From: a virus
Taxonomy: Duplodnaviria; Heunggongvirae; Uroviricota; Caudoviricetes
IMG/VR virus record: IMGVR_UViG_3300021256_000075
Span: 64,001-100,263 of that record
Reading direction: 5' to 3' (one strand)
DNA length: 36,263 nt
In this document: positions 14,928-29,501 of the stretch, one piece after another
Layout: every line of letters starts with the position of its first letter
Position numbering within the stretch: position 1 is the stretch's first letter
Position numbers and translations under genes: made by a program
Notes under the pieces: generated by a model
What the model was told of the DNA's origin: nothing
The model's database searches: none
Seen by the model: the letters and a program-made list of their open reading frames with translations, nothing else

Positions 14928-14941
14928 GGCGGTGAAATGGA

Positions 14942-15109
14942 ATGATTGTGATAACGACAATTGATGCACTTCCTGATTATTGCTATGAATGCCCGTGTCA
15001 CGATGGCGAAAGTGGTTATTGTCAGGCTGACAAATACCGGAGATATTCTGAGTACAGACCATATTGGTGTCCATTGAAAGAAATTCATGATAATCATGAA
15101 GAACGGTGA
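14942..15109 (+). CDS. Cys-rich microprotein, PxxCxxCP...PxWCPL family (not in ORF track)
   Basis: LPDYCYECPCH...YCQ...RPYWCPL. Confidence 0.65.
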   Translation: MIVITTIDALPDYCYECPCHDGESGYCQADKYRRYSEYRPYWCPLKEIHDNHEER

Positions 15110-15115
15110 AGTAGA

Positions 15116-15190
15116 ATGACAGCTTTAATTCTTTCAATTATTGCAATTATTTTGTCAATTCTTGGAGCTATTATTAACTCAAGGCGGTGA
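15116..15190 (+). CDS. 24-aa single-helix membrane peptide
   Basis: MTALILSIIAIILSILGAIINSRR fills the gap between two genes exactly. Confidence 0.45.
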   Translation: MTALILSIIAIILSILGAIINSRR

Positions 15191-15197
15191 AAATGTA

Positions 15198-15689
15198 GTG
15201 AGCGAAACAATGGAAATAATACGCAAGCCAATTAAAGGCTACGAAGGTTTGTATGAAGTAGACAATCTCGCAAGAGTGTTTTCTGTGGACAGAGTTGTGA
15301 CTGTCAACGATAACGGGCGAATCTATGACAAACCGCTAATGGGCAAGAAAATTAAGCAAGGGATGCACTCAAAAGGTTATAAAGTTGTGACTCTTACAAA
15401 GGACGGGAAAATGAAAACATTCTTTGTTCATCGTATTGTAGCAGAAGCATTTATCCAGAATCCGAATAATCTGCCAATAATAAATCACATTGACGAAGAC
15501 AAGACGAACAACCTACCGGAAAATCTTGAATGGTGCGACAACTATTACAATATGATGTATGGTCATGCAAGACAAAAACAAGCGAAGAAGATTAGAGGAC
15601 GAAAGCATACTGAAGAACATAATAGGCATATTTCCGAAGGGATAAGAAGGCGGTTATGTGCTGACGGAGAAAGGAAAGCGAGCAAATGA
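15198..15689 (+). CDS. NUMOD4-HNH-NUMOD3 homing-type endonuclease
   Basis: KPIKGYEGLYEVDN (NUMOD4), VHRIVAEAF...INHIDEDKTNNLPENLEWC (HNH), GRKHTEEH (NUMOD3). Confidence 0.9.
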   Translation: MSETMEIIRKPIKGYEGLYEVDNLARVFSVDRVVTVNDNGRIYDKPLMGKKIKQGMHSKGYKVVTLTKDGKMKTFFVHRIVAEAFIQNPNNLPIINHIDEDKTNNLPENLEWCDNYYNMMYGHARQKQAKKIRGRKHTEEHNRHISEGIRRRLCADGERKASK

Positions 15690-15949
15690 AGAAGATTGTT
15701 TTTATTATACTAATGGTAATTCTGTTGTTGACGTTGTGTGGTTGTGGCACGGTAAGCAAAATGAATGACATGTCATCTGAGAATAAAGTCGAAAGAACCA
15801 GATTTATGCAAATTGAAGACTATGGGTTTGGGAGCATTGTTGTTGACAGTGAAACAAACGTTGAATACTGGATGTCGAAAGGTACATACAATTGGGGGAC
15901 ATTAACAATGCTCGTTGATAAAAGCGGAAGTCCAAAGGTAAGGAAATAG
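15686..15949 (+). CDS. Phage lipoprotein (DUF6440-like)
   Basis: Lipobox LCGC after a hydrophobic leader; IVVDSETNVEY...TMLVDKSGSP. Confidence 0.7.
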   Translation: MKKIVFIILMVILLLTLCGCGTVSKMNDMSSENKVERTRFMQIEDYGFGSIVVDSETNVEYWMSKGTYNWGTLTMLVDKSGSPKVRK

Positions 15950-15982
15950 AAGTATTGAGAATGGAAAAGGCGGTGAAGTGGA

Positions 15983-16297
15983 ATGATTAACAGAGATAAA
16001 GTAATCAATGGGTTGCAATGCATTATTGATGGGACTGTACGATGTGAAAGTTGTGGATATTCAATAGACAAGCACGGACATCATTCGTGCCAACAGAATT
16101 GTGCATCAGATGCCATTGCTATATTGAAAGAGCAGGAAGCGGTTAAGCCAAAACTTGTCGGTCCGAGTATGTGGAGATGTGGTAATTGTGATGCGTTACT
16201 CGGATGGGAAGATTTTACACCGTCAGGAGTGGAATTGGTAGAATACAAGTTCTGCCCGGAGTGCGGACATGAGGTTAAATGGGATGATTGCAGATGA
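15983..16297 (+). CDS. Cys-rich protein with C-terminal zinc ribbon
   Basis: CESC...SDAIAILKEQE...CGNC...FCPECG..VKW. Confidence 0.7.
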   Translation: MINRDKVINGLQCIIDGTVRCESCGYSIDKHGHHSCQQNCASDAIAILKEQEAVKPKLVGPSMWRCGNCDALLGWEDFTPSGVELVEYKFCPECGHEVKWDDCR

Positions 16298-16781
16298 GTC
16301 AAAAAAGATACTGGATGTAACTTGTGGGGCCAGAACAATCTGGTTCAACAAAGATCATCCAGCAGCTGTGTTTTGTGATAAACGGAAAGAACAGTACAAG
16401 CACATATGGAAGAATTCGTTGAACTGCAAGCTTGATATAAATCCGGACGTGCTGTGCGATTTTACAGATCTTCCATTTCCTGATGAAAGTTTTCCACTTG
16501 TGGTATTTGATCCGCCACATTTGACAGGAGCTAAGGAAACATCCTGGCTTGTGAAGAAATACGGCAAACTGGATGAGACCTGGCCGGTAATGCTGCATGA
16601 CGGCTTTACTGAATGTATGAGAGTACTTAAACCAGATGGTGTGCTGATATTCAAATGGTCCGAATATGACATTCCTGCCGAAAAGGTATGGAAGGCCATC
16701 GGACAAAAGCCGCTATTCGGTCATCATAGTGGCAAAAAGAGCAATACGTTCTGGGGCTGTTTTATGAAAGGAGTAGTGTGA
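16284..16781 (+). CDS. Orphan SAM-dependent methyltransferase, probably an amino (N4C/N6A) DNA MTase
   Basis: Motif I ILDVTCG, catalytic-type FDPPH, RVLKPDGVLIFKW. Confidence 0.8.
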   Translation: MIADESKKILDVTCGARTIWFNKDHPAAVFCDKRKEQYKHIWKNSLNCKLDINPDVLCDFTDLPFPDESFPLVVFDPPHLTGAKETSWLVKKYGKLDETWPVMLHDGFTECMRVLKPDGVLIFKWSEYDIPAEKVWKAIGQKPLFGHHSGKKSNTFWGCFMKGVV

Positions 16782-16794
16782 AACATGACCGCTG

Positions 16795-16971
16795 ATGAAA
16801 GAATCGAGATTTGTGCAAGTCAGGATCTGGGTTAGTACTGACATTGTCGGAAGTACCATAGAAGATGTAATAGATCTGGATGATAATTTGAATGATGAAG
16901 AAATAGAGAAAGAAGCCTACGATGCTGTCATGGATCATGTTGAATGGGGCTATGAGAGGGTGAAAGAATGA
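16795..16971 (+). CDS. Small acidic phage protein (not in ORF track)
   Basis: 58-aa ORF MKESRFVQVRIWVSTDIVGST...EWGYERVKE overlapping the next start. Confidence 0.6.
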   Translation: MKESRFVQVRIWVSTDIVGSTIEDVIDLDDNLNDEEIEKEAYDAVMDHVEWGYERVKE

Positions 16972-17264
16972 CATCGACAAAACGAATTGAGGAACTCCTT
17001 GCTTGCTACGGTGAGACGCTCAGTGACCTTCCTAAACCGAAATCTGTTGATAATTACGATGAGAACTATGTAGTCATGGCGTATAAGTCGAGCCACCGTC
17101 ATAACGCGGGAAATATGGCCCTGCAATGGCATGAAATGGAAGCAGCAGATTCAGATATGCAGTCTGAAACGATAGTCCAGATCTGCCTGAAGGATTTTGT
17201 ATGTCACCAGTCGGATGTCATCGAAAAACTGGTGAAAGCGTTGGAGAAGTCGGTGGAGAAATGA
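16968..17264 (+). CDS. Hypothetical protein
   Basis: 98-aa ORF in the co-oriented array. Confidence 0.6.
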   Translation: MTSTKRIEELLACYGETLSDLPKPKSVDNYDENYVVMAYKSSHRHNAGNMALQWHEMEAADSDMQSETIVQICLKDFVCHQSDVIEKLVKALEKSVEK

Positions 17265-17296
17265 CCGACTGATAATGGGATGGATGTGAAAGAAGC

Positions 17297-17596
17297 ATGA
17301 AAGCCAAAGAGTATTTTGAAAAGTATGGAAGCGACATCATGAATGAGGGATTCAGGGGTGAAGCCTTAGGTGGTGGATTTATGGCCAGGCTCTACATTGA
17401 AATGTTTTATGAATTAAAAGAGATGGTCGATAAACGCCATATACAAAGGGACGACAGTTTTATGGCTCTCGTTGAGGAACAGAATGATAAGTGGAATGCA
17501 ATCGAGCGTTTATTTATCAAGAAATACGGAGTATCGCCGATTGCTCACAACGGATTCATGGCCGGGGTTAAAATTGAGCTGAATGAAAACCGTTAG
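17297..17596 (+). CDS. Hypothetical protein
   Basis: 99-aa ORF in the array. Confidence 0.65.
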   Translation: MKAKEYFEKYGSDIMNEGFRGEALGGGFMARLYIEMFYELKEMVDKRHIQRDDSFMALVEEQNDKWNAIERLFIKKYGVSPIAHNGFMAGVKIELNENR

Positions 17597-17632
17597 TTTG
17601 TGGTTGCGGAGATGAAAGCTAGGTGACAGAAA

Positions 17633-17926
17633 ATGGTAAGAATGAATATTGAGATCCCGAAAACCTGTGACGATTGCCCGTGCTTTAGAGACTCTGGGTT
17701 TTGGGGGACGTTTTGCTGGCGGTCTGGCGTAGTGTATGATATATGGCCTGAAAAAGGGATCCGTAATGATGGCTGTTTGATTTATACAGGTGTCAAACGT
17801 GACTGCCTCTTATGCTCCAATTCGTACTCGTCCGATGACGATAACGGAAGTCAGATATTGGTATGTGGCAAACATGGAGACAGCATTGTTGATCCGGAAT
17901 CTCCAGCCTGTGATGATTTTAATTAA
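17633..17926 (+). CDS. Cys-rich protein (PxxCxxCP family N-terminus fused to a second Cys module)
   Basis: IPKTCDDCPCF...FC and CLLC...LVC...ACDDF. Confidence 0.65.
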   Translation: MVRMNIEIPKTCDDCPCFRDSGFWGTFCWRSGVVYDIWPEKGIRNDGCLIYTGVKRDCLLCSNSYSSDDDNGSQILVCGKHGDSIVDPESPACDDFN

Positions 17927-17934
17927 AAGGCGAC

Positions 17935-18279
17935 ATGACAGAAAGAAAAACACCGTATAAAAAGGGGGAAATAAGATTGCGTCCTGTCAGAATGAGCAAA
18001 GATTTATTGATGAGTATACATCATTGGCTGAAAGAAAATAGGATAGACGAAATTTGGTTCGAAACCGTTGGCGACAATCATCTTAATGTGAGCTTGATTA
18101 AGAAGTTCGATGGGGAATTACCACTTGATAAGTCTGTATTAATTGACGTCATGAATTTTCCGGATTCCACACATCCATATTTCGAGTATAAGGCTGCAGA
18201 AATGAATCGTGATACAAAAAATACGTGTATGGAAAATGCAGGTTACAAACTGGTTGACCGTAAAATTCATTTATTGTAA
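17935..18279 (+). CDS. Hypothetical protein
   Basis: 114-aa ORF in the array. Confidence 0.6.
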   Translation: MTERKTPYKKGEIRLRPVRMSKDLLMSIHHWLKENRIDEIWFETVGDNHLNVSLIKKFDGELPLDKSVLIDVMNFPDSTHPYFEYKAAEMNRDTKNTCMENAGYKLVDRKIHLL

Positions 18280-18290
18280 GGAGAAATTGT

Positions 18291-18623
18291 ATGATCAAGG
18301 ATTCCAGGGCGTTTTCAAACGGCACAGAGTATGAGTGGTTTTGCGAACAATTCTGCGACAGGTGCAGACATTATAAGGAAAGAGATGACGGGTTTCCGGC
18401 GTTTGTGGAAGATGGAGGTTGTCCGATCAGAGACAAGGTCGAGTATGCCAGGCTTGGTGAGCCGTTCCCTTCTGAGTGTTTTGCAGATTTGTTTACCCCA
18501 GAAGGAAAGGCTATTGCTTTCAATGTCTGCCGCCATTTCTGGGCAGAGAATGACGATGATCAGTACAAGTATTTTCGGCTTTTCATGGATGCGATCTGCG
18601 GAAAGGGAAAAGACAAAAAATGA
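18291..18623 (+). CDS. Cys-rich hypothetical phage protein
   Basis: FSNGTEYEWFCEQFCDRC...GCPI; AAGGAG RBS. Confidence 0.7.
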   Translation: MIKDSRAFSNGTEYEWFCEQFCDRCRHYKERDDGFPAFVEDGGCPIRDKVEYARLGEPFPSECFADLFTPEGKAIAFNVCRHFWAENDDDQYKYFRLFMDAICGKGKDKK

Positions 18624-18829
18624 TCACCTATAGAGATTTCGTTGTCAGGCTCGAGATTAAAGAAGAAAATGGTCATGAAGATGCAACGATATATTCAGAC
18701 CAAGAGCTGGTACGCTGCCGTGAGTGCAAGTTCCGACATTGTTGCGAAACTGTCGATGGATTTGGAAAATCCGATCAGTGGTATTGTGCGGATGGAGTAA
18801 AGGCAGATCCGGAACAACAGCAGGCATAA
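18620..18829 (+). CDS. Cys-rich small phage protein
   Basis: ELVRCRECK...WYCADG motif. Confidence 0.65.
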   Translation: MITYRDFVVRLEIKEENGHEDATIYSDQELVRCRECKFRHCCETVDGFGKSDQWYCADGVKADPEQQQA

Positions 18830-18856
18830 AACTGCAAGACAGAAAGGAGATATACA

Positions 18857-19027
18857 ATGACGGTAGGAGAACTTATCGAAATTTTAAGAGGTTTGAATAG
18901 CCCTGACAGGCCAATCTACTATATCAATGGTGACGATATCACCGGCGTAAAAATAATAACCAATCTTTTAAAAGACGGGAAGAAGGAAACAGAGCTTTTC
19001 ATCACTGGGATACATTTTGAACTGTAA
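18857..19027 (+). CDS. Hypothetical microprotein (not in ORF track)
   Basis: MTVGELIEIL start after AAAGGAG. Confidence 0.6.
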   Translation: MTVGELIEILRGLNSPDRPIYYINGDDITGVKIITNLLKDGKKETELFITGIHFEL

Positions 19028-19041
19028 AACGAGGGTGAGAC

Positions 19042-19449
19042 ATGGAGATAAAAAGAATCATTGAGCTCCTGAAAATCGAACGGGAGTGCGTAAAGAGGAA
19101 TGCCAAAAAAGAGTGTGACAGGAACTGCGAGAAGTGCGATATCGTGCAGGATGAACGGGATCTGTACCGGATGTATACGGAGACGATCAAATTCATCAAG
19201 GCAAATACACCGCATCTCCTGACGCTCGAAGAGTCGCTTGATGCACCGTATGTATGGATGGAGGCGAATCCGAGCGGGCTGGGTGTCCGGAAGATCCGCA
19301 GATCAGCCGATGATGAATCGATCATCTACATCGAGTCCTTCATGGCGAGACCGTCCATGGCGGATGCGGATATGTTCGGGAAGATGTATCGGTGCTGGTC
19401 CGCAAAGCCGAGTGACGAACAGCGGAAGGAAACCCCGTGGGTTCCGTGA
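19042..19449 (+). CDS. Hypothetical protein with N-terminal Cys module
   Basis: CDRNCEKC; C-terminal YRCWSAKPSDEQRKETPW. Confidence 0.7.
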   Translation: MEIKRIIELLKIERECVKRNAKKECDRNCEKCDIVQDERDLYRMYTETIKFIKANTPHLLTLEESLDAPYVWMEANPSGLGVRKIRRSADDESIIYIESFMARPSMADADMFGKMYRCWSAKPSDEQRKETPWVP

Positions 19450-20135
19450 TGAAAGGTGTAGGTGCGAGGATGGATGAGATAAGACTGATCACGAAGGATA
19501 CGGATCTGTCAGGAGTCAAGCCGTTTGACTGGGATCTGGTCATCGGCGGGAAGCCGTACTACGTGTGCCGGATCGATGGATATTCCCATAGCTATGCGTG
19601 GAATGGCGGAATGGAAACAAAGCAGGATCTATGGTGCTACCCAAGAAACGAGAAGCCTTCCTGTGACAACCTGATCGAGTACAGTCTTAAGTCTCCTGTG
19701 GCGTGGGGGATCGAGTACAGGGAAGAACCGTGCATCGTGTCGAAGTACGGTGAAACGGAGACACGCGAGAATCGGTTTACGGTTATTACAAGAAATGGGG
19801 AGAAATTTTATACCGTTGGCGGTGGAAAAGAATATTCCATCATAAAGGCAATGTATCTCCTGCATGAAATTCAGGATCATCCGCTTGAATTCGATGCCAT
19901 AGACTACGACCTGAAGGCTGTGGGGCGGCGTATCTGGTACAGGGGACAGAAAGCGGTAATCACAAGATTTGTGCATGGACAGTGCTGCATTATGATTGCC
20001 AGGGAAGACGGGCTGCATTTCCAGTGTCCTGAGGAATACAAAAATGAGCCGTGGATTGAGGCTTCATATCGGGATGAGAAGGAACTGAAAATTGACTGCC
20101 TTGTTGCTGGGCATGTCAACTGGTTCAGAGATTAA
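19449..20135 (+). CDS. Hypothetical phage protein
   Basis: About 228-aa ORF, longest in the array, coupled to the upstream stop. Confidence 0.75.
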   Translation: MKGVGARMDEIRLITKDTDLSGVKPFDWDLVIGGKPYYVCRIDGYSHSYAWNGGMETKQDLWCYPRNEKPSCDNLIEYSLKSPVAWGIEYREEPCIVSKYGETETRENRFTVITRNGEKFYTVGGGKEYSIIKAMYLLHEIQDHPLEFDAIDYDLKAVGRRIWYRGQKAVITRFVHGQCCIMIAREDGLHFQCPEEYKNEPWIEASYRDEKELKIDCLVAGHVNWFRD

Positions 20136-20151
20136 GAAAGGGAAAGAAACA

Positions 20152-20283
20152 ATGGATAAAGAGATGCAGGAACTCATTCACCTTCTGCTGCATACGGTGC
20201 CGGATGACAAAACGATGGAGGATGCCATCGAGAAGGTATTCGGGAAGATTGCAAAAGATGAGAAACTCAAAAAAACCGTTTGA
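20152..20283 (+). CDS. Hypothetical microprotein
   Basis: 43-aa ORF after a purine-rich RBS. Confidence 0.45.
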   Translation: MDKEMQELIHLLLHTVPDDKTMEDAIEKVFGKIAKDEKLKKTV

Positions 20284-20307
20284 TAATTATCTTATTTCTG
20301 ATATAAT
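20280..20307 (+). promoter_or_regulatory. sigmaA-type promoter
   Basis: TTGATA, 16-nt spacer, TGaTATAAT (extended -10); GATAATTATC palindrome over the -35. Confidence 0.7.
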
Positions 20308-20326
20308 CGATAAGCGAGGTGATTAA

Positions 20327-20668
20327 ATGCAGAGAGTAATGATTGTTTACCCAAATGGAAAGACTACATACGGGATGTTTGAAGACGATAAGGACAGCCC
20401 GTGCTTCTGGTTTTCCGGTGCCAGGTATGAGATAAAAGATGTTGTGGATACCGGCGTTCAGATCAAAACAAATAATGATGCCCTTTATAACCGTTTCAGT
20501 GAGCTGGGGATTCCGGTGAGCCGAACGGAAAAGCAGCATACCATAACGATCTCCGTGCAGGAGGATACAAAGACCCGTCTTCAGACCGCATCAAAGGCCA
20601 CCGGAAGATCCGTGTCAAACATCCTTGAGGAGCAGGGACGGATCTGGCTGAAAAAGAATGGATACTGA
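20327..20668 (+). CDS. Protein with C-terminal ribbon-helix-helix (CopG/Arc-like) domain
   Basis: HTITISVQEDTKTRLQTASKATGRSVSNILEE strand-helix-helix pattern. Confidence 0.65.
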   Translation: MQRVMIVYPNGKTTYGMFEDDKDSPCFWFSGARYEIKDVVDTGVQIKTNNDALYNRFSELGIPVSRTEKQHTITISVQEDTKTRLQTASKATGRSVSNILEEQGRIWLKKNGY

Positions 20669-20673
20669 AACTG

Positions 20674-20707
20674 GACAGGTCAACAAATGACCTGTCTTCA
20701 TTTTTTT
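20674..20707 (+). terminator. Intrinsic terminator
   Basis: GACAGGTCA-acaaa-TGACCTGTC then TTCATTTTTTT. Confidence 0.75.
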
Positions 20708-20726
20708 GAAGTTCTGAGAGGAGAAG

Positions 20727-21947
20727 GTGAAAATTAAAATGACGGATGAGATTCGAAAAGTGTTCCCGTTTTTTGAACACAACCCGGACGTGACGTACCT
20801 GGATAACTCTGCGACATCCCTGGTGCCTTCCTGCGTGGTTGAACGGATGAATCGTTATGACCTTCTGGAAAAGGCATCTCCCTATCGGGGAATGTATCTG
20901 GGATCCGTTCAGGCAACCGAAGACTATGAGCACGCCAGGGATCTTGTGAGGGAGTACATCCATGCAGCCTCCAGCAGAGAAATCATCTTTACCAGAAACG
21001 CCACGGAGTCGCTCAACCTGGTCGCTTATTCCATCGAACCTATGATTCAGCCGGGAGATGAAATCATTGTCGGGATCGCAGAGCATCACAGCAATATGAT
21101 TCCGTGGCAGCAGCTGGCAAAGCGTACAGGTGCAAAGATCCGGTATGCTCAGATGCACGGCGAAGGTGCGGAGAGACGGTTCTCCCAGATCATCAATATG
21201 CATACGAGGATTGTAGCTCTAACTCACATGTCCAATGTGTATGGACAGCTGGAAGATGTTTCGTCCATTGCAAAGATGGCTCACGAGAGAAAAATATTTG
21301 TAGTTGCGGACGGATGCCAGAGTGTTCCGCATGTTCCAGTGAACGTTCAGGAACTGGGCGTTGACTTTCTGGCATTCTCCGGACATAAGATGCTCTGCCC
21401 GATGGGAATCGGTGTTCTTTACGGAAGGGAAGAACTGCTGCAACAAATGAGACCGTTCCTGTATGGCGGTGAAATGATCGAAAACGTGTCCCTGGATGGA
21501 GCAACCTGGGCACAGCTCCCGCAGAAGTTCGAAGCGGGAACGGTGAATGTAGGTGGTGCCATTGCTCTCGGCAAAGCCATCAAGTTTTATATTCGGAACG
21601 GACGGAATGCCATCATGAAACGTGAGGAGGATCTGACCAAACGGATGATGGACGGGATGCTATCCATGAAGCATGTAAATATCATTGGATCTCAGAAGCC
21701 GGAAGATCATTACGGCATCGTATCCTTCACGGTGGATGATGTCCATCCGCATGATGTTGCTGCGGTTATGTCTGCATCCGGCATCGCCATACGTGCAGGC
21801 CATCACTGTGCAAAGCCGCTGCATGACCACCTTGGAATCACGGCATCCAGCCGTGCCAGCGTGATGTTTTACAATACAGAGGCCGAGATAGACAAGTTTC
21901 TGGACGTGCTGTCCGGAGTACGGGGGGCGATGGGATATGCTGACTAA
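20727..21947 (+). CDS. sufS: SufS-type (group II) cysteine desulfurase
   Basis: YLDNSAT, EIIFTRNATESLN, DGCQ, FSGHKM (PLP lysine), GGEMI, FEAGT, RAGHHCA (catalytic Cys). Confidence 0.95.
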   Translation: MKIKMTDEIRKVFPFFEHNPDVTYLDNSATSLVPSCVVERMNRYDLLEKASPYRGMYLGSVQATEDYEHARDLVREYIHAASSREIIFTRNATESLNLVAYSIEPMIQPGDEIIVGIAEHHSNMIPWQQLAKRTGAKIRYAQMHGEGAERRFSQIINMHTRIVALTHMSNVYGQLEDVSSIAKMAHERKIFVVADGCQSVPHVPVNVQELGVDFLAFSGHKMLCPMGIGVLYGREELLQQMRPFLYGGEMIENVSLDGATWAQLPQKFEAGTVNVGGAIALGKAIKFYIRNGRNAIMKREEDLTKRMMDGMLSMKHVNIIGSQKPEDHYGIVSFTVDDVHPHDVAAVMSASGIAIRAGHHCAKPLHDHLGITASSRASVMFYNTEAEIDKFLDVLSGVRGAMGYAD

Positions 21948-22374
21948 GCCGTTTTACAGCGAGGAGATCATCCGGCACTGGCATAATCCGACCCATAAAA
22001 AAACGCTCCCAGGTGCAAACCTGACGCTGGAATGGGAGAACCCGAACTGCGGTGACAGGATTGTGCTGCATCTTCTGGTAAATGAATCCGGGATTATTGA
22101 GGACGGATCCTTTACGGGGGATGGGTGTGCGGTATCCCAGGCAAGCACAGACATGATGCTGGATCTGATCACAGGGAAAAGCACCGAGGAAGCGCTGCGG
22201 ATCTACGAAGCGTTTGTGCGGATGTGCCGCGGAAACGCAGATGAGACAGATCTGGATCTCCTTGGCGAAGTGGCTTCCATTGAAGCAATCTCCCGGACTC
22301 CTGCCAGGGTGAAATGCGCAGTGCTTGGATGGAGGACGATGAAAGCGTGTCTGGACGAAGAAAGCCGGTGCTGA
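21937..22374 (+). CDS. sufU: SufU sulfur-acceptor/scaffold protein
   Basis: NPNCGD, GDGCAVSQAS, RVKCA; overlaps the sufS stop. Confidence 0.93.
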   Translation: MLTKPFYSEEIIRHWHNPTHKKTLPGANLTLEWENPNCGDRIVLHLLVNESGIIEDGSFTGDGCAVSQASTDMMLDLITGKSTEEALRIYEAFVRMCRGNADETDLDLLGEVASIEAISRTPARVKCAVLGWRTMKACLDEESRC

Positions 22375-22404
22375 CGGTCATCTTAAAATGAAATTGAGAA
22401 AATC

Positions 22405-22454
22405 AAAATTTTTTATAAAAACCTATTTACAATTATCCCATAATGGTATATAAT
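22405..22454 (+). promoter_or_regulatory. sigmaA promoter, twin copy 1
   Basis: AT-rich UP tract, TTTACA-17-TATAAT, ATTAT-N3-ATAAT palindrome in the spacer; near-identical to 33566-33616. Confidence 0.8.
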
Positions 22455-22523
22455 CTAATCACGGTTTGAAAAGAAACCAACCACACAAAAAATTCTCGTA
22501 GATGCGAGAAACGGAGGTACAAA

Positions 22524-22823
22524 ATGACGATAAAGACATCCTATATCTGCGATAAATGCGGCAAAGTGTACGATAACTATGATGATGTGTATGCGTGCGA
22601 AAATTCTCATTTTGAGCCAGAGGGATATAATGAGGTGACGTGGAAGTCCCTCAGATACGAGAAGGGAGAGAAATTCCCGGCCTCCCTGATTATACGACTG
22701 GAAAAATCCGATGATTACGGCCATAAGGCATATGCCTTGTACAGACTTGTTAAGGGCTTTACAGACGATGAGGCCAAAGATCTTGAAGAAAAAGCAAAAG
22801 CCAAAGAGGGGGAAGACGAATGA
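22524..22823 (+). CDS. Hypothetical phage protein with CxxC...CxxxH motif
   Basis: YICDKCGKVY...ACENSH; GGAGG RBS. Confidence 0.75.
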   Translation: MTIKTSYICDKCGKVYDNYDDVYACENSHFEPEGYNEVTWKSLRYEKGEKFPASLIIRLEKSDDYGHKAYALYRLVKGFTDDEAKDLEEKAKAKEGEDE

Positions 22824-23197
22824 AAGATGTTGTTCTCCGGCACCGGTGCGCCACATGCCGGAGAACTTTCTTTACAGGAGTGTCGGCAGAGGTGTGGGGG
22901 TGGGCGATGCAGGACAGCCCGACCTCCCACCGAAAGCTCTTTTGCAGTTACAGTTGCATGAGGGCGTACGAAAAGCCACGGCTGGAAAAGGAACAGCGGA
23001 AGATGCAAAAGGAAATTATAAAGGCAATAGAGGAGGAAAACGATGGGGAGAGCGGACCGCAGGAGACTGATGCGGGAGCAGCTGAAAAAAAGCCGGGATC
23101 TCAAAGAAAAGTACGATCAGAACACACTGATGGAGAGGCTCACACAAAATGGGATCTCTCCCAGCGATCTGAAAACATCGTACAAAGAGGGGTTTGA
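22820..23197 (+). CDS. Zinc-finger (TRASH/MYM-like) protein
   Basis: CATC...FCSYSC; the C-terminal part overlaps the next gene. Confidence 0.6.
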   Translation: MKDVVLRHRCATCRRTFFTGVSAEVWGWAMQDSPTSHRKLFCSYSCMRAYEKPRLEKEQRKMQKEIIKAIEEENDGESGPQETDAGAAEKKPGSQRKVRSEHTDGEAHTKWDLSQRSENIVQRGV

Positions 23198-23456
23198 TGA
23201 GGGCCTGAAGGTGGCGGCGCGGCCGATCCTGAAGACAACGTACGGAGCCCTGTGCATCCTTCTGAACGAGAAGTACGGGTTCCCGCCGGAGAAGTGCCTG
23301 GAAGCCCTGGTTGCGTTCGACCAGAAGGTGACGTACGCAATCAATGAGGATGAGTATGTCGGGGAGACGTTTGATAAGCTGGGACTGGAGATAGATTTCA
23401 GCGGTGCTACTGACAGAGTAATCGCACCGGACAGCTTTGGTGTCCAGCTGGATTAA
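23043..23456 (+). CDS. Hypothetical phage protein
   Basis: MGRADRRR start after GGAGG; 137 aa. Confidence 0.7.
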   Translation: MGRADRRRLMREQLKKSRDLKEKYDQNTLMERLTQNGISPSDLKTSYKEGFDEGLKVAARPILKTTYGALCILLNEKYGFPPEKCLEALVAFDQKVTYAINEDEYVGETFDKLGLEIDFSGATDRVIAPDSFGVQLD

Positions 23457-23505
23457 AAACGACAACTGCCGAGTATTTCTCGGATGTTGGATGAGGAGTG
23501 AAGTT

Positions 23506-23733
23506 ATGGAGATACGTGTAAACCCAAAATGGACGGCGATCAAGCTGGAGAATGAGCGGGTTGCCCGCAAACTAACACAGCAGGATGTAGCTAATGCGAT
23601 TGGCGTGTCGATGCAGTCGGTCAGCAACTGGGAAAATGGGAAGATGCCGTCCGTATGGAATCTGATGGCCCTGTCGGTGCTGTATGACACACCGATAAAC
23701 GAGTTTCTTATGTATAGAGGTGTTGCGGGATGA
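23506..23733 (+). CDS. XRE HTH regulator
   Basis: LTQQDVANAIGVSMQSVSNWENGKMP. Confidence 0.85.
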   Translation: MEIRVNPKWTAIKLENERVARKLTQQDVANAIGVSMQSVSNWENGKMPSVWNLMALSVLYDTPINEFLMYRGVAG

Positions 23734-23951
23734 CTTTAGTGAACAGGCTGAAGGATCTCCGCATGAGAATCGTGAGGGAAGATCCGTTTTCCTGTGATGA
23801 GGAACGTGCCGCAGCCGCAGAGACACTTGAAAAAGCGGAGCAGCTGATACGGATGCAGAAGATTACAATCAACAAGCTGTCAAAGACTCTGAGGGAGGCA
23901 GCAGTTCTGAGCGAAATGCAGAGGAATGGTATGAAATGGTTTACAGAATAG
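23730..23951 (+). CDS. Hypothetical protein
   Basis: LVNRL..LR...AAETLE...coiled coil; overlapping start. Confidence 0.6.
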   Translation: MTLVNRLKDLRMRIVREDPFSCDEERAAAAETLEKAEQLIRMQKITINKLSKTLREAAVLSEMQRNGMKWFTE

Positions 23952-24100
23952 CAATGTATCTGGATAACCGCCATGTTTATGGTGAGACGATGCGACATTT
24001 GCTTCCGGCGCTCTTCAAGGCACTGCACCTGATGCTGAAGTACCACAGGAGAAAGGCAATCATAAGCTTCGCTACGATTAATACAAAAGCGCTGGGATGA
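23936..24100 (+). CDS. Hypothetical microprotein (not in ORF track)
   Basis: 54-aa ORF MVYRIAMYLDNRHVYG... filling the gap. Confidence 0.45.
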   Translation: MVYRIAMYLDNRHVYGETMRHLLPALFKALHLMLKYHRRKAIISFATINTKALG

Positions 24101-24143
24101 TAGATAAAAAACGACCGTACCGAAACAAGAAGGAGAAAAAAGA

Positions 24144-24587
24144 ATGGATAATTCAACGATTGAGACTGTATTGAGGGGTTTGCTGAAGGAGCTGATCGAC
24201 GAAGAGAAGATCACAATGATTATTGAGAGAGAAGTTGGTGAACGATTTGAATATCATTTTGAGCGGGCACTTGAAAGCAAGGCAGCAGAGATGGTTGAAA
24301 AGTTCAGCGCCGATGTGATTGCTGACAAACTGGATGAAGTCCTCGGAAAAAGAGTCCTGGTGAATGACGGATTTGGCTCTCGAAAAGAGTATGCTGATTT
24401 CAACACGTTTGTGACCGATTACATTGGTCGCCAGGTGAAAAGCTCCTATGATCTGGAACGCAAGGTTGCCGATATTGTAAGAAAGCGGCTCGATCAGTAC
24501 TGCAAAGAAGTGGTTGCTGAGTCAAACAGCGAGTTGGCGAATAAGGTCATTGAAAAGATCGCTGCCGACAAAGGCAAACACTTTTAA
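24144..24587 (+). CDS. Hypothetical helical protein
   Basis: 147-aa ORF with AAGGAG RBS. Confidence 0.7.
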   Translation: MDNSTIETVLRGLLKELIDEEKITMIIEREVGERFEYHFERALESKAAEMVEKFSADVIADKLDEVLGKRVLVNDGFGSRKEYADFNTFVTDYIGRQVKSSYDLERKVADIVRKRLDQYCKEVVAESNSELANKVIEKIAADKGKHF

Positions 24588-24645
24588 TAATCAAATAAGG
24601 AGGGCAGGATCGTTCCTGCTCTCCGATTGAAGGGGGAAAGAAAAC

Positions 24646-24873
24646 ATGTTGAGCTATCATTCGATGGCAATTACAAACCAGGGAACACAGCTTGCATATC
24701 ATGGATTTGATTCTGCTGAAGAAGCCTTGCATCAGTTTGAAGTCTGGAATAATGAGTTCGGAATCATTTTTCGAAGCACATGGATTGATGTTTATGATGA
24801 ATCTGGGAAGAAAGTAAAAAGGTTGTCCGTTGCCCAAAAGTGGGTACTGGAATCTGAAGATGACATAACCTGA
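24646..24873 (+). CDS. Hypothetical protein
   Basis: 75-aa ORF with RBS. Confidence 0.6.
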   Translation: MLSYHSMAITNQGTQLAYHGFDSAEEALHQFEVWNNEFGIIFRSTWIDVYDESGKKVKRLSVAQKWVLESEDDIT

Positions 24874-24891
24874 TGGGAGGAAGAGAACCGG

Positions 24892-25140
24892 ATGACAGAT
24901 TGTATACCGATTCACCCCACAGCGGAATGGAGTAAATCGAAGTTTTGTATGTGCACAGCTTGCCACAAAGAGGATTATGTCCTCATGGTAGAGTGGCAGG
25001 AGACCGGATATTGGCTGAAGGAAGACGGTACAAGACCACTAAGTCAAAAAAGGAAATCATTGTGGCTTTGTGACGAGTGCCGGAAGAAAATGCTGGAATG
25101 TCTGAACGAGGAGAGAAAAGAGAATAATGAAGTGCGATAA
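24892..25140 (+). CDS. Cys-rich hypothetical protein
   Basis: CMCTAC...LCDEC. Confidence 0.6.
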   Translation: MTDCIPIHPTAEWSKSKFCMCTACHKEDYVLMVEWQETGYWLKEDGTRPLSQKRKSLWLCDECRKKMLECLNEERKENNEVR

Positions 25141-25396
25141 ATGCCCGTTGTATTCTTACTGGAACAATGAAAACGATCGTGGGGAAAGCTGTGGTCTTTT
25201 CGGCGATGCCTGGGACAGCCGCTTTCAGTACGAAGACAAGCTCGGAAATGTGGTGGGATGTTATATCGACAGGCATCTTATCGAAAAAGCTGATGAAGAG
25301 TATTTATCGACTCTGGAGGTAACGGAAGATAGAGTCGATTCGGCAATTGCTGATCTGGAGGAAATTGCAGAACTTTTTCATAAGGAGGAACTATGA
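25127..25396 (+). CDS. Cys-rich hypothetical protein
   Basis: MKCDKCPLY...ESCGLFG...GCY. Confidence 0.65.
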   Translation: MKCDKCPLYSYWNNENDRGESCGLFGDAWDSRFQYEDKLGNVVGCYIDRHLIEKADEEYLSTLEVTEDRVDSAIADLEEIAELFHKEEL

Positions 25397-25674
25397 AAGA
25401 ACGACCAAATTTGGATGAAGTAATTGCAGATATTCAGAAAATAATAGATGAAAACCAGAGAAGTTATATTCGATGTATTCATGTCGGAACACTGATGGAT
25501 ATACTTCATCTTCTGAAAGAGAAAAAACCAAAGCCGATAGCGATTACGACAAACGAATACGGGACAAGGTCCTACCATTGTCCGAATTGCAACAGGACCT
25601 TTTTTGGGCCGTTTGATGCGTATAAGGATTATTGCTATAGGTGCGGGCAGGCGCTTAACTGGGAAGGAGAATAA
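25393..25674 (+). CDS. Zinc-ribbon protein
   Basis: LLKEKKPKP...CPNC...YCYRCGQALNW. Confidence 0.7.
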   Translation: MKERPNLDEVIADIQKIIDENQRSYIRCIHVGTLMDILHLLKEKKPKPIAITTNEYGTRSYHCPNCNRTFFGPFDAYKDYCYRCGQALNWEGE

Positions 25675-25749
25675 CTGATGCCAGTTTGACATAGATGTCG
25701 GGAAGCGTGAGGCACACTGCCAGCTTGTCATTCAAGGAGAAAGCGACGT

Positions 25750-25980
25750 ATGAATAAAATAAAGGAAGTAGAGCCGAAACTAGACTACAACGGCAGAACC
25801 GTCTGGAGATGTGGAGAGTGTGGGAATGTAATATTTCATCCGGTAGGAAACGATAGCGATGAAAACAATATGAACCACTATAAATATTGTTCTCATTGCG
25901 GAAAACCGATTAAATGGACAGCGTGGCCTTATGCCCATGAGCGAAAAATGGTGTTCGCTTTTGAGCATGGACTGATGTAA
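25750..25980 (+). CDS. Zinc-ribbon protein
   Basis: WRCGECG...YCSHCGKPIKW. Confidence 0.7.
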   Translation: MNKIKEVEPKLDYNGRTVWRCGECGNVIFHPVGNDSDENNMNHYKYCSHCGKPIKWTAWPYAHERKMVFAFEHGLM

Positions 25981-25989
25981 CAATCGAAA

Positions 25990-26277
25990 GTGTGTTTTAT
26001 GGAGAAAGAAAAATTTAAACTGAATATTCCGGAAAAATTGAATGAAATGATTCTAAAATGCTTCATATCTCACCAATTTGATGTAATTGATCAGCTGTTG
26101 GATGTTTTTATAACAAGCGAAAGGGACAACCAGATGAACGACATCGAGAAAATGCCGCCTAAATGCCATGATTGCCCGTACTGGGAATGGGCGGAATATC
26201 CGTATTTCTGCGACTGTAAAGAACGGTATGAAAACAATATTCTACCGAATAATTCAAATCGGGGTGAAACAATTTGA
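25990..26277 (+). CDS. Hypothetical protein with PxxCxxCP module
   Basis: MPPKCHDCPYW...FCDC. Confidence 0.55.
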   Translation: MCFMEKEKFKLNIPEKLNEMILKCFISHQFDVIDQLLDVFITSERDNQMNDIEKMPPKCHDCPYWEWAEYPYFCDCKERYENNILPNNSNRGETI

Positions 26278-26447
26278 AAATAACTTTCACGTGTAAACTG
26301 ACAATGACGGATGAATTTGAAGATTCAGAAGGAGAAAAAGCTTATCCGGTTGATGTGATTGTAAAAGGCCTGATGAAAGATTTGAAATACGGTCTGTCTG
26401 AAAAAGGCAGTGTAGACATTTCAGATTATTCAGTCAGCGTTAATTAA
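26274..26447 (+). CDS. Hypothetical microprotein (not in ORF track)
   Basis: TTG start after GGGGTG, 57 aa. Confidence 0.5.
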   Translation: MKITFTCKLTMTDEFEDSEGEKAYPVDVIVKGLMKDLKYGLSEKGSVDISDYSVSVN

Positions 26448-26501
26448 CAATCGAAAGGGGTTACAAACATAAAGCATGATATGAAAGGAGATTGGAGATA
26501 C

Positions 26502-26636
26502 GTGATTAGCGAATGCGATGAATGCATGAAGGATGCTCCATATACCTTCTGTTGTAGAATTGAATGCGGAGAGCATGAGTTTTGTCGAGGTTGCGAAGCT
26601 GAAGCAAGAAAGCAACCTGAAAAGGATTGTCATTAA
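26502..26636 (+). CDS. Cys-rich microprotein (not in ORF track)
   Basis: 44 aa with 8 Cys (CDEC, FCC, C, FCRGC, C); GGAG RBS. Confidence 0.55.
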   Translation: MISECDECMKDAPYTFCCRIECGEHEFCRGCEAEARKQPEKDCH

Positions 26637-26673
26637 CTGACCTAATTCAAATGCGGACAGGAGGTAAAGTGGG

Positions 26674-26892
26674 ATGAATGATCGGGAGAATGTTATCACG
26701 GGGCTGGAATGCTGTCAGCATTCTTCAAAATCGTATTGCGATAGATGCCCATATTTGAGCAGCACCAATGATTGTACTGCTGATTTAGCAAGCGATGCAA
26801 TTGCCCTACTTAAAGAGCAGGAAGAACGAATCAATAAATTTGAGTTGGAAAGAAGTTGGGATGAATATCCAGACAGGATGGGAAAGTGGTGA
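26674..26892 (+). CDS. Cys-rich small protein, paralog of the N-half of 15983-16297
   Basis: MNDRENVITGLECC...CDRCPY...ASDAIALLKEQE. Confidence 0.7.
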   Translation: MNDRENVITGLECCQHSSKSYCDRCPYLSSTNDCTADLASDAIALLKEQEERINKFELERSWDEYPDRMGKW

Positions 26893-26899
26893 AGCTGGA

Positions 26900-27124
26900 A
26901 TGATTAAATCAAAAAATAAATGTCAGAAATGCGGAGGACGCTTAGTCGCTGAATATATCGGAAGCTATGGCGACGTTTTCCTCTTGAATTCAAAAGGCGA
27001 GCCATGCAAAAGCCGACTAAAACGACACATATATGAGCACGATGGAGAACTACCGATGATTTATTGCAATGATTGCAGGAGCGGGTATGAGAAATGCGGA
27101 TATGAGGCGGAGTGGCATGAATGA
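26900..27124 (+). CDS. Zinc-ribbon protein
   Basis: CQKCGG...YCNDC. Confidence 0.65.
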   Translation: MIKSKNKCQKCGGRLVAEYIGSYGDVFLLNSKGEPCKSRLKRHIYEHDGELPMIYCNDCRSGYEKCGYEAEWHE

Positions 27125-27413
27125 AAAAAATAGTTATGACTATGTTGCAGATGCGGTTAGGACATATTGGAACAATACTTTTCCACGAGACGTAGTAGCA
27201 TTTTTTCGGCAAAAATATAGTTTTAATGACAAATGGGAATACCTCGAAGAAGTTGTTTTTTGCAAAAGTGATTCCGATTATGAAACTGTAACTTTTTTGA
27301 ATGATTTTTGCGAGGGACAAACGTGTGTGGAAAACATCATAATTGTTCCGTTGTGTGAAGTGCTGGAATATTATGGTGAGAATGCATTGGTGAAAGACGG
27401 TGAAGTGGGATGA
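27117..27413 (+). CDS. Hypothetical protein
   Basis: 98-aa ORF with overlapping start/stop. Confidence 0.6.
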   Translation: MNEKNSYDYVADAVRTYWNNTFPRDVVAFFRQKYSFNDKWEYLEEVVFCKSDSDYETVTFLNDFCEGQTCVENIIIVPLCEVLEYYGENALVKDGEVG

Positions 27414-27685
27414 ATGAACTGTATCAGCCTAAATGTTGCGCCGAATGTGTTTATATAAGGTCATATGACTGCTATAAGGTTTGCTCGTATCCGTTTTTTC
27501 CGGCAGAGATGTCGATACTGGATATCTCATCATTCAAGGTTAATCCGGATGCAGTTCCGGATTGGTGTCCACTTATACAAAGAAATGATGAAATCGCTTC
27601 AATGCCGGAAGAAAAACGGAATGCTCTGAATGAAATATGTAAGGGATTAGCAATTCTGCTTGGGTGGTCTGAATCGAAGGAATAG
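27410..27685 (+). CDS. Cys-rich protein, PxxCxxC...PxWCPL family
   Basis: QPKCCAEC...VC...VPDWCPL. Confidence 0.65.
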   Translation: MNELYQPKCCAECVYIRSYDCYKVCSYPFFPAEMSILDISSFKVNPDAVPDWCPLIQRNDEIASMPEEKRNALNEICKGLAILLGWSESKE

Positions 27686-27752
27686 GAAATGCTCCAAACA
27701 GGCACAGGACGTAAGGAGACGTAAAAAGTGCGGAAAATGGCAGTGATGAAAG

Positions 27753-27995
27753 ATGAGTAAAAATTATCCGATTGTTCTTGGACATAAATTCAGGAAGGGC
27801 CTCCTCGCTTTTCGAATCCCTGAAGGTGGATTCAGATTGTTGGTATGTCGATTAAAGAAAGAATATCGAACTGGCGATAAGTTTGAGCTTGAAGATGTTG
27901 AGAGTGTGGAAAAAGAGATCTGGTTTGCAGACCGAAAAACACTTGAACTGACCGCTGGGGTAATGAATAAAGTGTTGAAAGATTGGAAAGAATGA
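27753..27995 (+). CDS. Hypothetical protein
   Basis: 80-aa ORF in the array. Confidence 0.6.
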   Translation: MSKNYPIVLGHKFRKGLLAFRIPEGGFRLLVCRLKKEYRTGDKFELEDVESVEKEIWFADRKTLELTAGVMNKVLKDWKE

Positions 27996-28135
27996 CATGG
28001 AAACACCTGAGGAACGACAACGAACCATGCAACATTATGGAATAAAGAAAGGATGGTAAGCATATGAAGTTTGGACGAAAGCGGTTGCCGAAGGGAAGAC
28101 GTAAGGGGTGGATGATATGGTGATGTGGGAAAGAG

Positions 28136-28663
28136 GTGAAAAATATGACTGCTGATAAGAAGATAATCTGCAAAGACTGCCGTTGGTGGCGGCCTGGCTT
28201 CATAGAAGGTGAAGATAATTTTAATCCTCCGCGGTGTACTTTACACGATGCACCGATGGAACATGATCGTACATGTTCTGATGCAAAGGAGAAAGCCAAA
28301 ACGGCTGCTGACGAAAGGATCGAGAAGCTGCTGAACCGCTTCGGGCAGACGATATCAAACCTGCCAGATTATTATCCACCTTCAGACAGAGACAGTGCAT
28401 CTCGTGCTGCATTCGATTTTTATACCCAAAATGGTATGCCGGAGAGACCTTGGTTACCGTTAATGGTAAACCAGATTTTTATCTGTCATCTCTGTGACGT
28501 GATCGACAGGTTGGAGATTGCGCTGGAAACCGCCTCCAGGTGGATGCCGTGCTATCTCTGCAAAAATGCGAGCGAGTGCAGCAAGAAGGGGATGGAAGAT
28601 CTGCACTGCGTAAGACCGTGTGAGGAGAAGACAATCAATGATTACATGCTTCACGACCAGTGA
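28136..28663 (+). CDS. Hypothetical protein with Cys modules at both ends
   Basis: ICKDCRWW...RC...TCS and MPCYLCKNASEC...C. Confidence 0.65.
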   Translation: MKNMTADKKIICKDCRWWRPGFIEGEDNFNPPRCTLHDAPMEHDRTCSDAKEKAKTAADERIEKLLNRFGQTISNLPDYYPPSDRDSASRAAFDFYTQNGMPERPWLPLMVNQIFICHLCDVIDRLEIALETASRWMPCYLCKNASECSKKGMEDLHCVRPCEEKTINDYMLHDQ

Positions 28664-28682
28664 AGAAGGGAGTGGATCTTAA

Positions 28683-28988
28683 GTGCAGGTATTTATCTCG
28701 CAGCCGATGAGAAACCGCAGCGATGAGGAGATCAGAGCTGAACGCAGGAAGATCATGGAGTATGTGCAAAAATTCTATCCGGATGAAAAAGTCGAAGAGA
28801 TCAAAAGCTTTTTCGACATGGATATCCAGAGTAAGAATACACCGCTCAAAATGCTGGGGATGAGCCTGGAACTGCTTGCCGAGGCAGATGTGGCGGTGTT
28901 TGCGGATGGATGGTCCATTGCCCGAGGATGTAGGATCGAGCATGAGGTGTCAGAACTGTACGGCATCCGTATTTTCGATCTGGAGTAA
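28683..28988 (+). CDS. DUF4406 / nucleoside 2-deoxyribosyltransferase-like protein
   Basis: VFISQPM, ELLAEADVAVFADGWSIARGCRIEHEVSELYG. Confidence 0.75.
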   Translation: MQVFISQPMRNRSDEEIRAERRKIMEYVQKFYPDEKVEEIKSFFDMDIQSKNTPLKMLGMSLELLAEADVAVFADGWSIARGCRIEHEVSELYGIRIFDLE

Positions 28989-28999
28989 AGGAGAAACGA

Positions 29000-29419
29000 A
29001 TGAAACTGAAATGCAAACTGGATGATGGTGCAAAAGCACCGGTGCGGGCGTATCCGACAGATGCCGGGCTGGATCTCTTTTCCAGGCAGATCCACGTCAT
29101 CCGTCCGAGGCAGTGGAGAAATTTTAAGACCGGCGTGCACGTGGAGATCCCTGCAGGCTATTACGGCAAGCTGGAGTCAAAGAGCGGACTGATGTCAAAG
29201 TCCGGAATCATCTGTCCTGGGGGAATCATCGACAGCGGATACTCTGGGGAGATCTCGGTCACGCTGTACAACCTATCGGATCAGCCGTATCGGATCTCCA
29301 TCGGGGACAAGGTCTGTCAGCTGCTGATCCTCCCCTGTGAGCTGCCTGAGGTAGATGTGGTGGAAGAAATTGATTCCGGCGAGCGGGGAGACGCCGGATT
29401 CGGAAGCACCGGAAAATAA
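29000..29419 (+). CDS. dut: Trimeric dUTPase 2
   Basis: AGLD, KSGL, GIIDSGYSG, KVCQLLI, RGDAGFGSTG. Confidence 0.93.
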   Translation: MKLKCKLDDGAKAPVRAYPTDAGLDLFSRQIHVIRPRQWRNFKTGVHVEIPAGYYGKLESKSGLMSKSGIICPGGIIDSGYSGEISVTLYNLSDQPYRISIGDKVCQLLILPCELPEVDVVEEIDSGERGDAGFGSTGK

Positions 29420-29453
29420 AAAAAGTCGCCTTCATTTCGGAGGCGATTTTTTT
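29417..29453. terminator. Intrinsic terminator ending the accessory array
   Basis: AAAAAAAG-TCGCCT...AGGCGA-TTTTTTT. Confidence 0.8.
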
Positions 29454-29501
29454 GTTGTCGAGCATGCGGAAACGAATGCTGAAACGGGATAAAATTGCCT
29501 T

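Follow-up and report, generated by a model that had tools for sequence, protein, structure and literature searches.

What would a tailed phage do with a cysteine desulfurase and its sulfur acceptor if it carries none of the scaffold genes with which the two usually occur? The question is raised by a 36,263-nucleotide stretch of DNA, here called the window, which spans positions 64,001 to 100,263 of the IMG/VR virus record IMGVR_UViG_3300021256_000075 (Caudoviricetes) and holds two overlapping genes, sufS and sufU (together sufSU). Their carrier appears to be an ~88-kb temperate tailed phage of uncultured ruminant/gut Clostridia, which we named phage Y. The best reading of the sequence data, held with moderate confidence, is that this temperate phage carries a selectively kept sufSU pair as an auxiliary sulfur-mobilising module that would feed the SufBCD machinery of its host. 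The two genes are:

20739..21947, + strand: sufS, type II (SufS-family) pyridoxal 5'-phosphate (PLP)-dependent cysteine desulfurase, 402 aa from ATG 20739
21937..22374, + strand: sufU, zinc-dependent sulfur-transfer protein, 145 aa

An intact SufS–SufU pair

SufS matched PF00266 (Aminotran_5) from end to end (E 1e-131, 439.5 bits, cut-off 21.5) and scored just over the cut-off of the NCBIfam model TIGR01979 (479.8 versus 475.1 bits). SufU matched the TIGR01994 equivalog (138.5 bits, cut-off 92.5) and stayed far under the respective cut-offs of the IscU (49) and NifU_clost (52.6) models. The closest solved structures were those of Bacillus subtilis SufS (E 1e-107, full length) and B. subtilis SufU (E 2e-26). 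In an alignment of the window protein with its 120 best database relatives (121 sequences; SufS residue numbers follow the 406-aa form), the PLP lysine K221 as well as C361, H120/H121, D195, Q198, H220, R356 and R376 were invariant and kept in the phage copy, with the lysine located in SGHK and the catalytic Cys361 in the loop RAGHHCA. The histidine of VHPHD, H342, was likewise conserved and aligned to His342 of B. subtilis SufS, which we take from the 5XT5 work to be the residue swapping into the SufU zinc site. Residues C38, D40, C64 and C127 of phage SufU aligned to the B. subtilis zinc ligands Cys41, Asp43, Cys66 and Cys128, and the SufU-specific insert (residues ~91–126) aligned nearly gap-free to 1XJS and 5XT5. 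The protein lacks an LPPVK motif, the corresponding stretch being TPARVKC. Family cut-offs and catalytic and zinc residues thus confirmed the initial annotation, which had described an intact pair with all catalytic motifs.

The sufS start proposed there, GTG 20727 (giving 406 aa), is less likely than ATG 20739, because gene callers favour the latter, at which the database copy of the protein also starts, and an AAGGTGA Shine–Dalgarno sequence lies 9 nt upstream of it. In a related phage contig, L007, the SufS orthologue starts two codons upstream of the position matching ATG 20739. The two window genes overlap by 11 nt, the same length as in cellular operons.

Genomic context, conservation and selection

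A search of the whole 100,263-bp virus record yielded no match to the SufB/D core (PF01458), and tblastn detected no sufB, sufC or sufD in the window or in L007. The lack of sufBCD stated in the initial annotation was thereby borne out; the phage locus does not constitute a complete SUF system, in which a SufB/SufD scaffold and SufC accompany SufS. The neighbours of sufSU were all phage-type ORFs (open reading frames), also as first described. We found the identical locus in three other assemblies, which probably belong to the same sample series. L007 is more informative: this 87,484-bp contig from another sample shares 88–90% nucleotide identity with the window, is collinear with it and carries sufSU at the same position. 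Phage ORFs flank the pair for more than 5 kb on both sides in four assemblies and in the diverged L007.

Between the window and L007, SufS is 85% and SufU 93% identical. The ratio of nonsynonymous to synonymous substitution rates (dN/dS) was 0.27 for sufS and 0.16 for sufU, compared with 0.06–0.39 for eight neighbouring phage genes, at synonymous divergences (dS) of 0.39 and 0.21, respectively. These comparisons show an intact pair under purifying selection.

Locus L021 (positions 2–9336 of a contig from the metagenome-assembled genome (MAG) RUG14246) revealed a second case. Here, sufS–sufU follow an integrase, a DUF669 protein, a DUF6291/DnaB_2 replication protein, a DnaC-like loader, an SH3_3 protein and small ORFs. 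The L021 SufS is 89–90% identical to the housekeeping copies of two cellular genomes (L018 and L019) and 64% identical to the window SufS, and nucleotide similarity of L021 to these genomes is limited to sufSU. Judged by this pattern, L021 is an independent and younger acquisition of sufSU by a different prophage.

Transcription signals around the pair are as follows:

20280..20307, + strand: promoter-like site TTGATA-16-TGnTATAAT before orf113 (20327–20668)
20673..20709, + strand: terminator-like hairpin and T-run, 10-bp stem and 5-nt loop, ~30 nt before the sufS start
22426..22454, + strand: strong sigma70-type promoter within a ~53-bp repeat immediately downstream of sufU

The initial annotation had placed the pair between phage promoters. 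This holds for the downstream side, where the strong promoter follows sufU, but not for the upstream side, since none directly precedes sufS. No promoter was found between orf113 and sufS; the nearest upstream candidate for read-through into sufSU is the site at 20280–20307. The hairpin itself (20673–20697; z = −2.7 versus shuffles) is 100% conserved in the 88–90% identical L007 despite differing nearby bases. We thus assume that sufSU would be transcribed by read-through from the early-type promoter at 20280 across the conserved hairpin, and that expression is probably attenuated or antitermination-dependent. The ~53-bp element downstream (TTGACA/TTTACA, 17 nt, extended −10 TGnTATAAT) occurs at window 22405–22457, window 33567–33619 and contig C1 13852–13894. 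It is reused at three early-type operon starts, recurring at the head of the accessory array and within the phage Y early operon.

The absence of an own promoter and the terminator upstream would also suit neutral or decaying cargo, that is, a passenger from a host suf operon without benefit to the phage. Two further points fit this reading: of the genes in the block compared, sufS evolves fastest and has several private changes at sites that are conserved elsewhere, and the phage SufS lineage is rare, comprising two 90% clusters in 5.8 billion proteins. However, both ORFs are intact in two lineages at the synonymous divergences given above, dN/dS is far less than 1, no catalytic or zinc residue has been lost, and conservation extends to the gene overlap and to the hairpin upstream. 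The second independent capture, moreover, suggests a recurring advantage. We therefore regard a mere passenger as unlikely.

Origin of the pair

Outside the phage lineage, the nearest SufS proteins (64–69% identity) were those of MAGs of uncultured ruminant-gut Clostridia, one of them labelled Christensenella sp. UBA4263, and those checked lie mostly in sufCBDSU operons. An order-level search around genome G004 returned no closer SufS. Among Bacillota relatives, sufS–sufU are nearly always found downstream of sufC–sufB–sufD, and the 11-nt overlap was present in every near-clade locus with gene calls. A metagenome sample, in which relatives reached at most 55% identity among the matches listed, was used as background only; among the matches listed there, sufB/C/D lay just upstream in all 41 evaluable loci. 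In the maximum-likelihood tree the phage clade (window and L007, support 100/100) was nested in ruminant-gut Clostridia SufS with support of 98/90 on a long stem branch (0.42). GC content and GC at third codon positions (GC3) of phage sufSU were intermediate between phage background and cellular copies. Operon context, overlap, tree nesting on a long stem and intermediate GC/GC3 together show sufSU to be the captured 3' end of a host-type suf operon, and the capture was not recent. The initial annotation had named near identity to a host copy combined with absence from related phages as the observation that would speak against a phage module. Neither was found: no cellular SufS exceeded 69% identity to the phage protein, the phylogeny against host sufSU gave a long-branched nested clade, and the locus is kept in L007.

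A stand-alone pair also exists in a close cellular relative, genome G002. Its locus L017 is an orphan sufSU containing the only SufS of the genome, and the single SufB/D-core match of that genome resides on another contig. Here sufSU is unlinked from the SufB/D-like gene, and SufSU acting in trans therefore has a natural precedent. This cellular stand-alone sufSU (L008/L017, MAG RGIG4336) is located among glycosidase genes. For a longer SufS relative, P0003 (599 aa, 49% identity), Pfam annotation lists an additional match to PF03841, a possible sign of a fusion.

N-terminal motifs and substrate specificity

The motif readings ATSLVP and ASPYRG, from which the initial annotation had derived a hint of altered specificity, are literally correct. 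Phage SufS indeed has neither the (S/T)QKP nor the xxHRG motif of Escherichia coli and B. subtilis SufS; these motifs are not family-defining. The column occupied by His in B. subtilis and E. coli SufS contains L, F, M or Y in 121/121 aligned sequences (Tyr in the phage copy), and the histidine is also replaced in SufS copies inside housekeeping sufCBDSU operons. Across the same alignment the Lys column of (S/T)QKP is variable. The Gln-to-Leu change is present in five aligned sequences, among them P0018, which sits in a cellular sufC-B-D-S-U operon, and also in P0019, a close homologue of P0018. A literature search on SufS His55/Arg56 found nothing relevant. Phage SufS scored 185.9 bits with the selenocysteine lyase SclA model NF040779 (cut-off 525) and 116.7 bits with the DndA model (cut-off 480). 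Hence the hint lost its basis: the unusual N-terminal motifs appear to be mostly lineage traits, and we see in the sequence no evidence of altered SufS specificity.

Substitutions private to the phage clade were Y53, M56, G59, R242, Y329, V347 and K363. Known catalytic positions are unaffected; the change Q363K lies near the Cys loop. Together with positions 32, 53, 56, 59, 242 and 329, this change could be taken to reflect an enzyme with a shifted substrate or role, e.g., a selenocysteine lyase, or a protein for cysteine catabolism and H2S release in host takeover. Type II desulfurases do show selenocysteine lyase activity in vitro. However, the SclA score is far from the cut-off, the catalytic residues are all unchanged, and an intact, co-translated SufU favours persulfide relay over the release of free sulfide, which renders a shifted role highly unlikely.

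The carrier phage and its assembly

The window contains two unrelated integrases and a tRNA-fragment att site. The features relevant to its assembly are:

15104..15986, + strand: HNH homing-endonuclease repeat, second copy at contig C1 18507–19391 (L001)
15987..29419, + strand: phage Y accessory array with sufSU, including a methyltransferase (16269–16781), ~35 small ORFs (many Cys-rich) and a dUTPase (29000–29419)
29418..29806, no strand assigned: terminator after the dUTPase and five ACGTGGTCA repeats, attP-like region adjoining integrase 2
30000..31187, − strand: tyrosine integrase 2 of phage Y, whose position downstream of sufSU is conserved in L007

The low coordinates of a 149,135-bp scaffold, scaffold_165, map to window +15,200 and the high ones to window −133,477. 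The scaffold thus forms a closed loop with a ~148.7-kb period, and its ends are exactly a 458-bp stretch that is identical between the two HNH endonuclease gene copies. Including the DUF6440 ORF, these copies are 96.8% identical, with the exact 458-bp core at window 15201–15658 and contig 18605–19062; a Logan contig also breaks within the repeat. The repeat permits two resolutions, a circle of 148.7 kb or two circles of 60.6 and 88.1 kb. The stretch preceding the sufSU array in L007 aligns with contig 12.2–17.9 kb at 93–95% identity, L007 lacks the HNH gene, and its size of 87.5 kb fits the 88-kb loop. On account of these three features we favour the two-circle resolution. The window is thus probably a figure-eight join of two phages at the 458-bp repeat. 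In the same way, a 60.6-kb and an 88.1-kb phage have probably been merged in the 100-kb IMG/VR record and in two ~148-kb scaffolds; alternatively, there may be a real cointegrate in this one sample. Joins of this kind, if correctly recognised, affect any gene co-occurrence inference from this IMG/VR record.

Phage X corresponds to window 1–15.1 kb and phage Y to window 15.99–36.26 kb, which places sufSU 4.75 kb inside the phage Y side of the join. Phage Y encodes its own terminase, tail fibres, amidase, integrase 2 and replication genes. Its gene order, reconstructed across the assembly repeat, begins with integrase 2 and regulators, followed by recombination and replication genes with RusA, and by small ORFs together with genes for a DNA methylase, dCMP deaminase, ThyX and SSB. 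Next comes the terminase with the other late genes, ~25 kb of which lie outside the sequence seen, then tail fibres and amidase, a post-lysis region, a ~20-kb array and finally the attP-like repeats by integrase 2. The array consists of small ORFs punctuated by promoters and holds the HNH gene, the methyltransferase, sufSU and the dUTPase. The five ACGTGGTCA repeats (29503–29806) form two clusters and are candidate integrase arm sites of attP. A genome with virion genes, phage genes on both sides and the same locus in L007 qualify sufSU as auxiliary metabolic genes (AMGs) of a phage, in a genome reconstructed across an assembly repeat.

Phage X carries an SNF2 helicase, an IbrA-like protein with PAPS_reduct and DUF3440 domains, ParB, an att site, integrase 1, Sak4, SSB, DnaC and RusA. 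A fragment of a tRNA 3' end (T-arm, acceptor stem and CCA; window 3297–3360, minus strand), followed by a terminator hairpin, adjoins integrase 1 (3419–4573) and looks like the phage X att core; the contig contains neither a second copy of the fragment nor a matching full tRNA. A tRNA-Gln(TTG) gene (L002 4593–4667, contig C1 24593–24667) lies in the phage X accessory region ahead of the terminase. The two integrases and the att site would also suit a tandem prophage array, in which sufSU would lie behind integrase 1 in an element devoid of virion genes; this reading was ruled out by the circular closure and the comparison with L007.

Misattachment of host DNA to a viral contig, in which case the pair would not be phage-borne, has to be weighed here as well. 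In its favour, the window is itself a probable chimera joined at the HNH repeat, and the other sufS–sufU hits checked in phage databases were all full cellular suf operons. Yet sufSU lies well inside phage Y, with the phage flanks noted above in four assemblies and L007, the identity to cellular SufS is at most 69%, and no nucleotide similarity extends beyond sufSU (one cellular contig pair compared). An artefact of this type is extremely improbable.

Thio-modification and the IbrA-like module

The phage X part of the window raises a further option. A module at window 1–3183 comprises an SNF2-type helicase, the PAPS_reduct/DUF3440 (IbrA-like) protein, an ORF of 100 aa and a ParB-like protein, and sufSU might act as a dedicated sulfur donor of the DndA/SspA kind for phage nucleic-acid thio-modification, with the SNF2 helicase, the IbrA-like protein (DndC fold) and the ParB-like protein (DndB-like) as partners. 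Dnd/Ssp phosphorothioation systems combine DndA with DndC, of the 3'-phosphoadenosine-5'-phosphosulfate (PAPS) reductase fold, and a ParB-like DndB, and a similar protein trio is found in the record and in an independent contig, L115 (245–10246). There, a different sufSU and a ParB – IbrA-like – SNF2 module are in convergent orientation at a distance of 2.7 kb. The L115 pair is located near a gene for a helix-turn-helix/Peptidase_S24 repressor and a Y-family polymerase gene, and the contig begins 244 bp before sufS. Also in favour, iscS and PAPS reductase are the two AMGs found on the largest numbers of rumen virome contigs (PMC5704599).

The window module, however, is separated from sufSU by the att site, an integrase and the exact 458-bp repeat at which the assemblies break, and the DNA upstream of the sufSU array in L007 is the phage Y post-lysis region, with no IbrA element. 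Across 80 IbrA-like loci in IMG/VR viral contigs (1.03 Mb), ParB was present in 76 and SNF2 in 53, and a SufS-like desulfurase or SufU within 10 kb in 0/80. The PAPS_reduct protein carries DUF3440 and is of the IbrA rather than the DndC type, the DndA model score of phage SufS is far below the cut-off, and the proximity in the record is probably an assembly join. No DndA/SspA-type desulfurase linked to a DndC/SspD-type protein, as in Dnd/Ssp systems, is present. SufU-coupled SufS enzymes of B. subtilis, furthermore, are dedicated to SUF. With the assembly repeat between the genes and 0/80 modules with a desulfurase, the DNA thio-modification named in the initial annotation lost support, and we consider a dedicated donor very unlikely.

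Proposed function and its weighing

We thus return to a module that feeds the host SufBCD. Phage SufS would form a persulfide on Cys361, and SufU would accept the sulfur on Cys38 after an exchange of zinc ligands with SufS His342. During infection or lysogeny, expression of the pair would raise the flux of cysteine-derived persulfide into host SufBCD, and the greater sulfur flux could sustain the maturation of iron–sulfur (Fe–S) enzymes needed by fermentative anaerobes and by phage DNA synthesis.

Several points weigh against this assignment. The fit between the phage pair and host SufBCD is an assumption, and ~25 kb of phage Y lie outside the sequence seen and may hold a scaffold or client. 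Pfam searches of the Cys-rich neighbours and nucleases recognised no Fe–S client protein in the phage. By sequence comparison, sufS evolves faster than most of its neighbours (85% versus 93–98% amino-acid identity; dN/dS 0.27), and this rate together with the long stem (0.42) could mean relaxed or shifted constraint. Finally, the region directly before sufS has a conserved terminator-like hairpin in place of a promoter.

The small early/accessory ORFs (window 10870–29419 and contig C1 14.4–26.3 kb) are rich in cysteine (2.9–3.4% Cys versus 0.9–1.1% in virion genes). At least 4 Cys within fewer than 150 aa, frequently arranged in CxxC pairs, were counted in 22 of 51 ORFs; for most of the ORFs no family was matched, and a few gave weak zinc-ribbon hits. 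One may speculate that persulfide supply, not scaffold capacity, limits phage production in strictly anaerobic, Fe–S-rich Clostridia, hence the repeated capture of sufSU, or that the pair does not boost host SUF but is a private relay for a sulfur or metal-cluster requirement of the phage, e.g., the maturation of some of the Cys-rich small early proteins (3.4% Cys) or a nucleic-acid thio-modification; we rate these extensions as rather unlikely.

Known systems and database precedents

The Gram-positive SufS–SufU system of B. subtilis (PDB 5XT5, 5J8Q, 1XJS) shares with the phage pair the two-protein architecture, full-length alignment, the PLP-Lys/Cys361/His342 set and the SufU ligands Cys/Asp/Cys/Cys with the insert. 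In contrast, the phage-encoded pair comes without sufC, sufD and sufB, and the histidine of HRG is replaced by Tyr. Closest were the sufC-B-D-S-U operons of Clostridia (MAGs RUG11251, RGIG8456, Christensenella sp. UBA4263 and RGIG3625; SufS 64–69%, SufU 49–56% identity), which have in common with the phage pair the 11-nt overlap and the signatures ASP(F/Y)RG and ADGCQS, whereas the phage copy is found on the long branch (0.42), without the three scaffold genes and with a lower GC content.

Viral genes for cysteine desulfurase or Fe–S assembly have been described in rumen, gut and marine viromes (PMC5704599; PMC8940887; PMC12911398), including iscS as an AMG in bovine rumen viromes (PMC5704599) and sufE and nifU in marine viromes (PMC8940887). 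The PHROG families phrog_12787 and phrog_8429 match the pair. These viral AMGs belong to the same functional class with the same proposed role, boosting the host Fe–S supply, and the rumen environment matches. The earlier reports count annotations on contigs from viromes, whereas the present case assigns a complete SufS–SufU relay to a resolved temperate phage genome and adds its phylogeny, a selection analysis and a second capture.

Our literature search found no paper describing a SufS–SufU pair in a phage. GenBank phages contained no near-identical match to 20 kb of the window, and nothing was found by an IMG/VR scan with exact SufS peptides or by an alignment scan with SufU. An alignment-based SufS scan of IMG/VR returned nine loci, six of which were host suf operons bordering prophages; the others comprised two isolated, distantly related aminotransferases and a short fragment. 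The database 'phage' records with sufS and a SufU or IscU gene that we checked all proved to be full cellular operons. Two GenBank records were examined as precedents for an orphan pair and ruled out, as both carry sufBCD: Microcystis phage MaAM05 (L107, MW495066), which at 265.5–273.9 kb holds panC and a full sufBCDS-iscU operon, and MT835488 (L108) with sufCBDSU. The suf operons in both records are likely cellular DNA.

Significance

The assignment of the sufSU phage as a new example within the known class of viral Fe–S AMGs, with ordinary enzymology and not as a new type of system, is well supported. The locus provides a resolved and testable example of what stands behind the counts of 'iscS-like AMGs' in rumen viromes, and the two independent captures hint at the desulfurase step as a recurrent target. 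Fermentation and hydrogen output of Clostridia in the gut and rumen are driven by Fe–S enzymes, among them hydrogenases, ferredoxin-linked oxidoreductases and radical-SAM enzymes. A sulfur-mobilising step supplied by a phage could thus alter the physiology of its host during infection or lysogeny.

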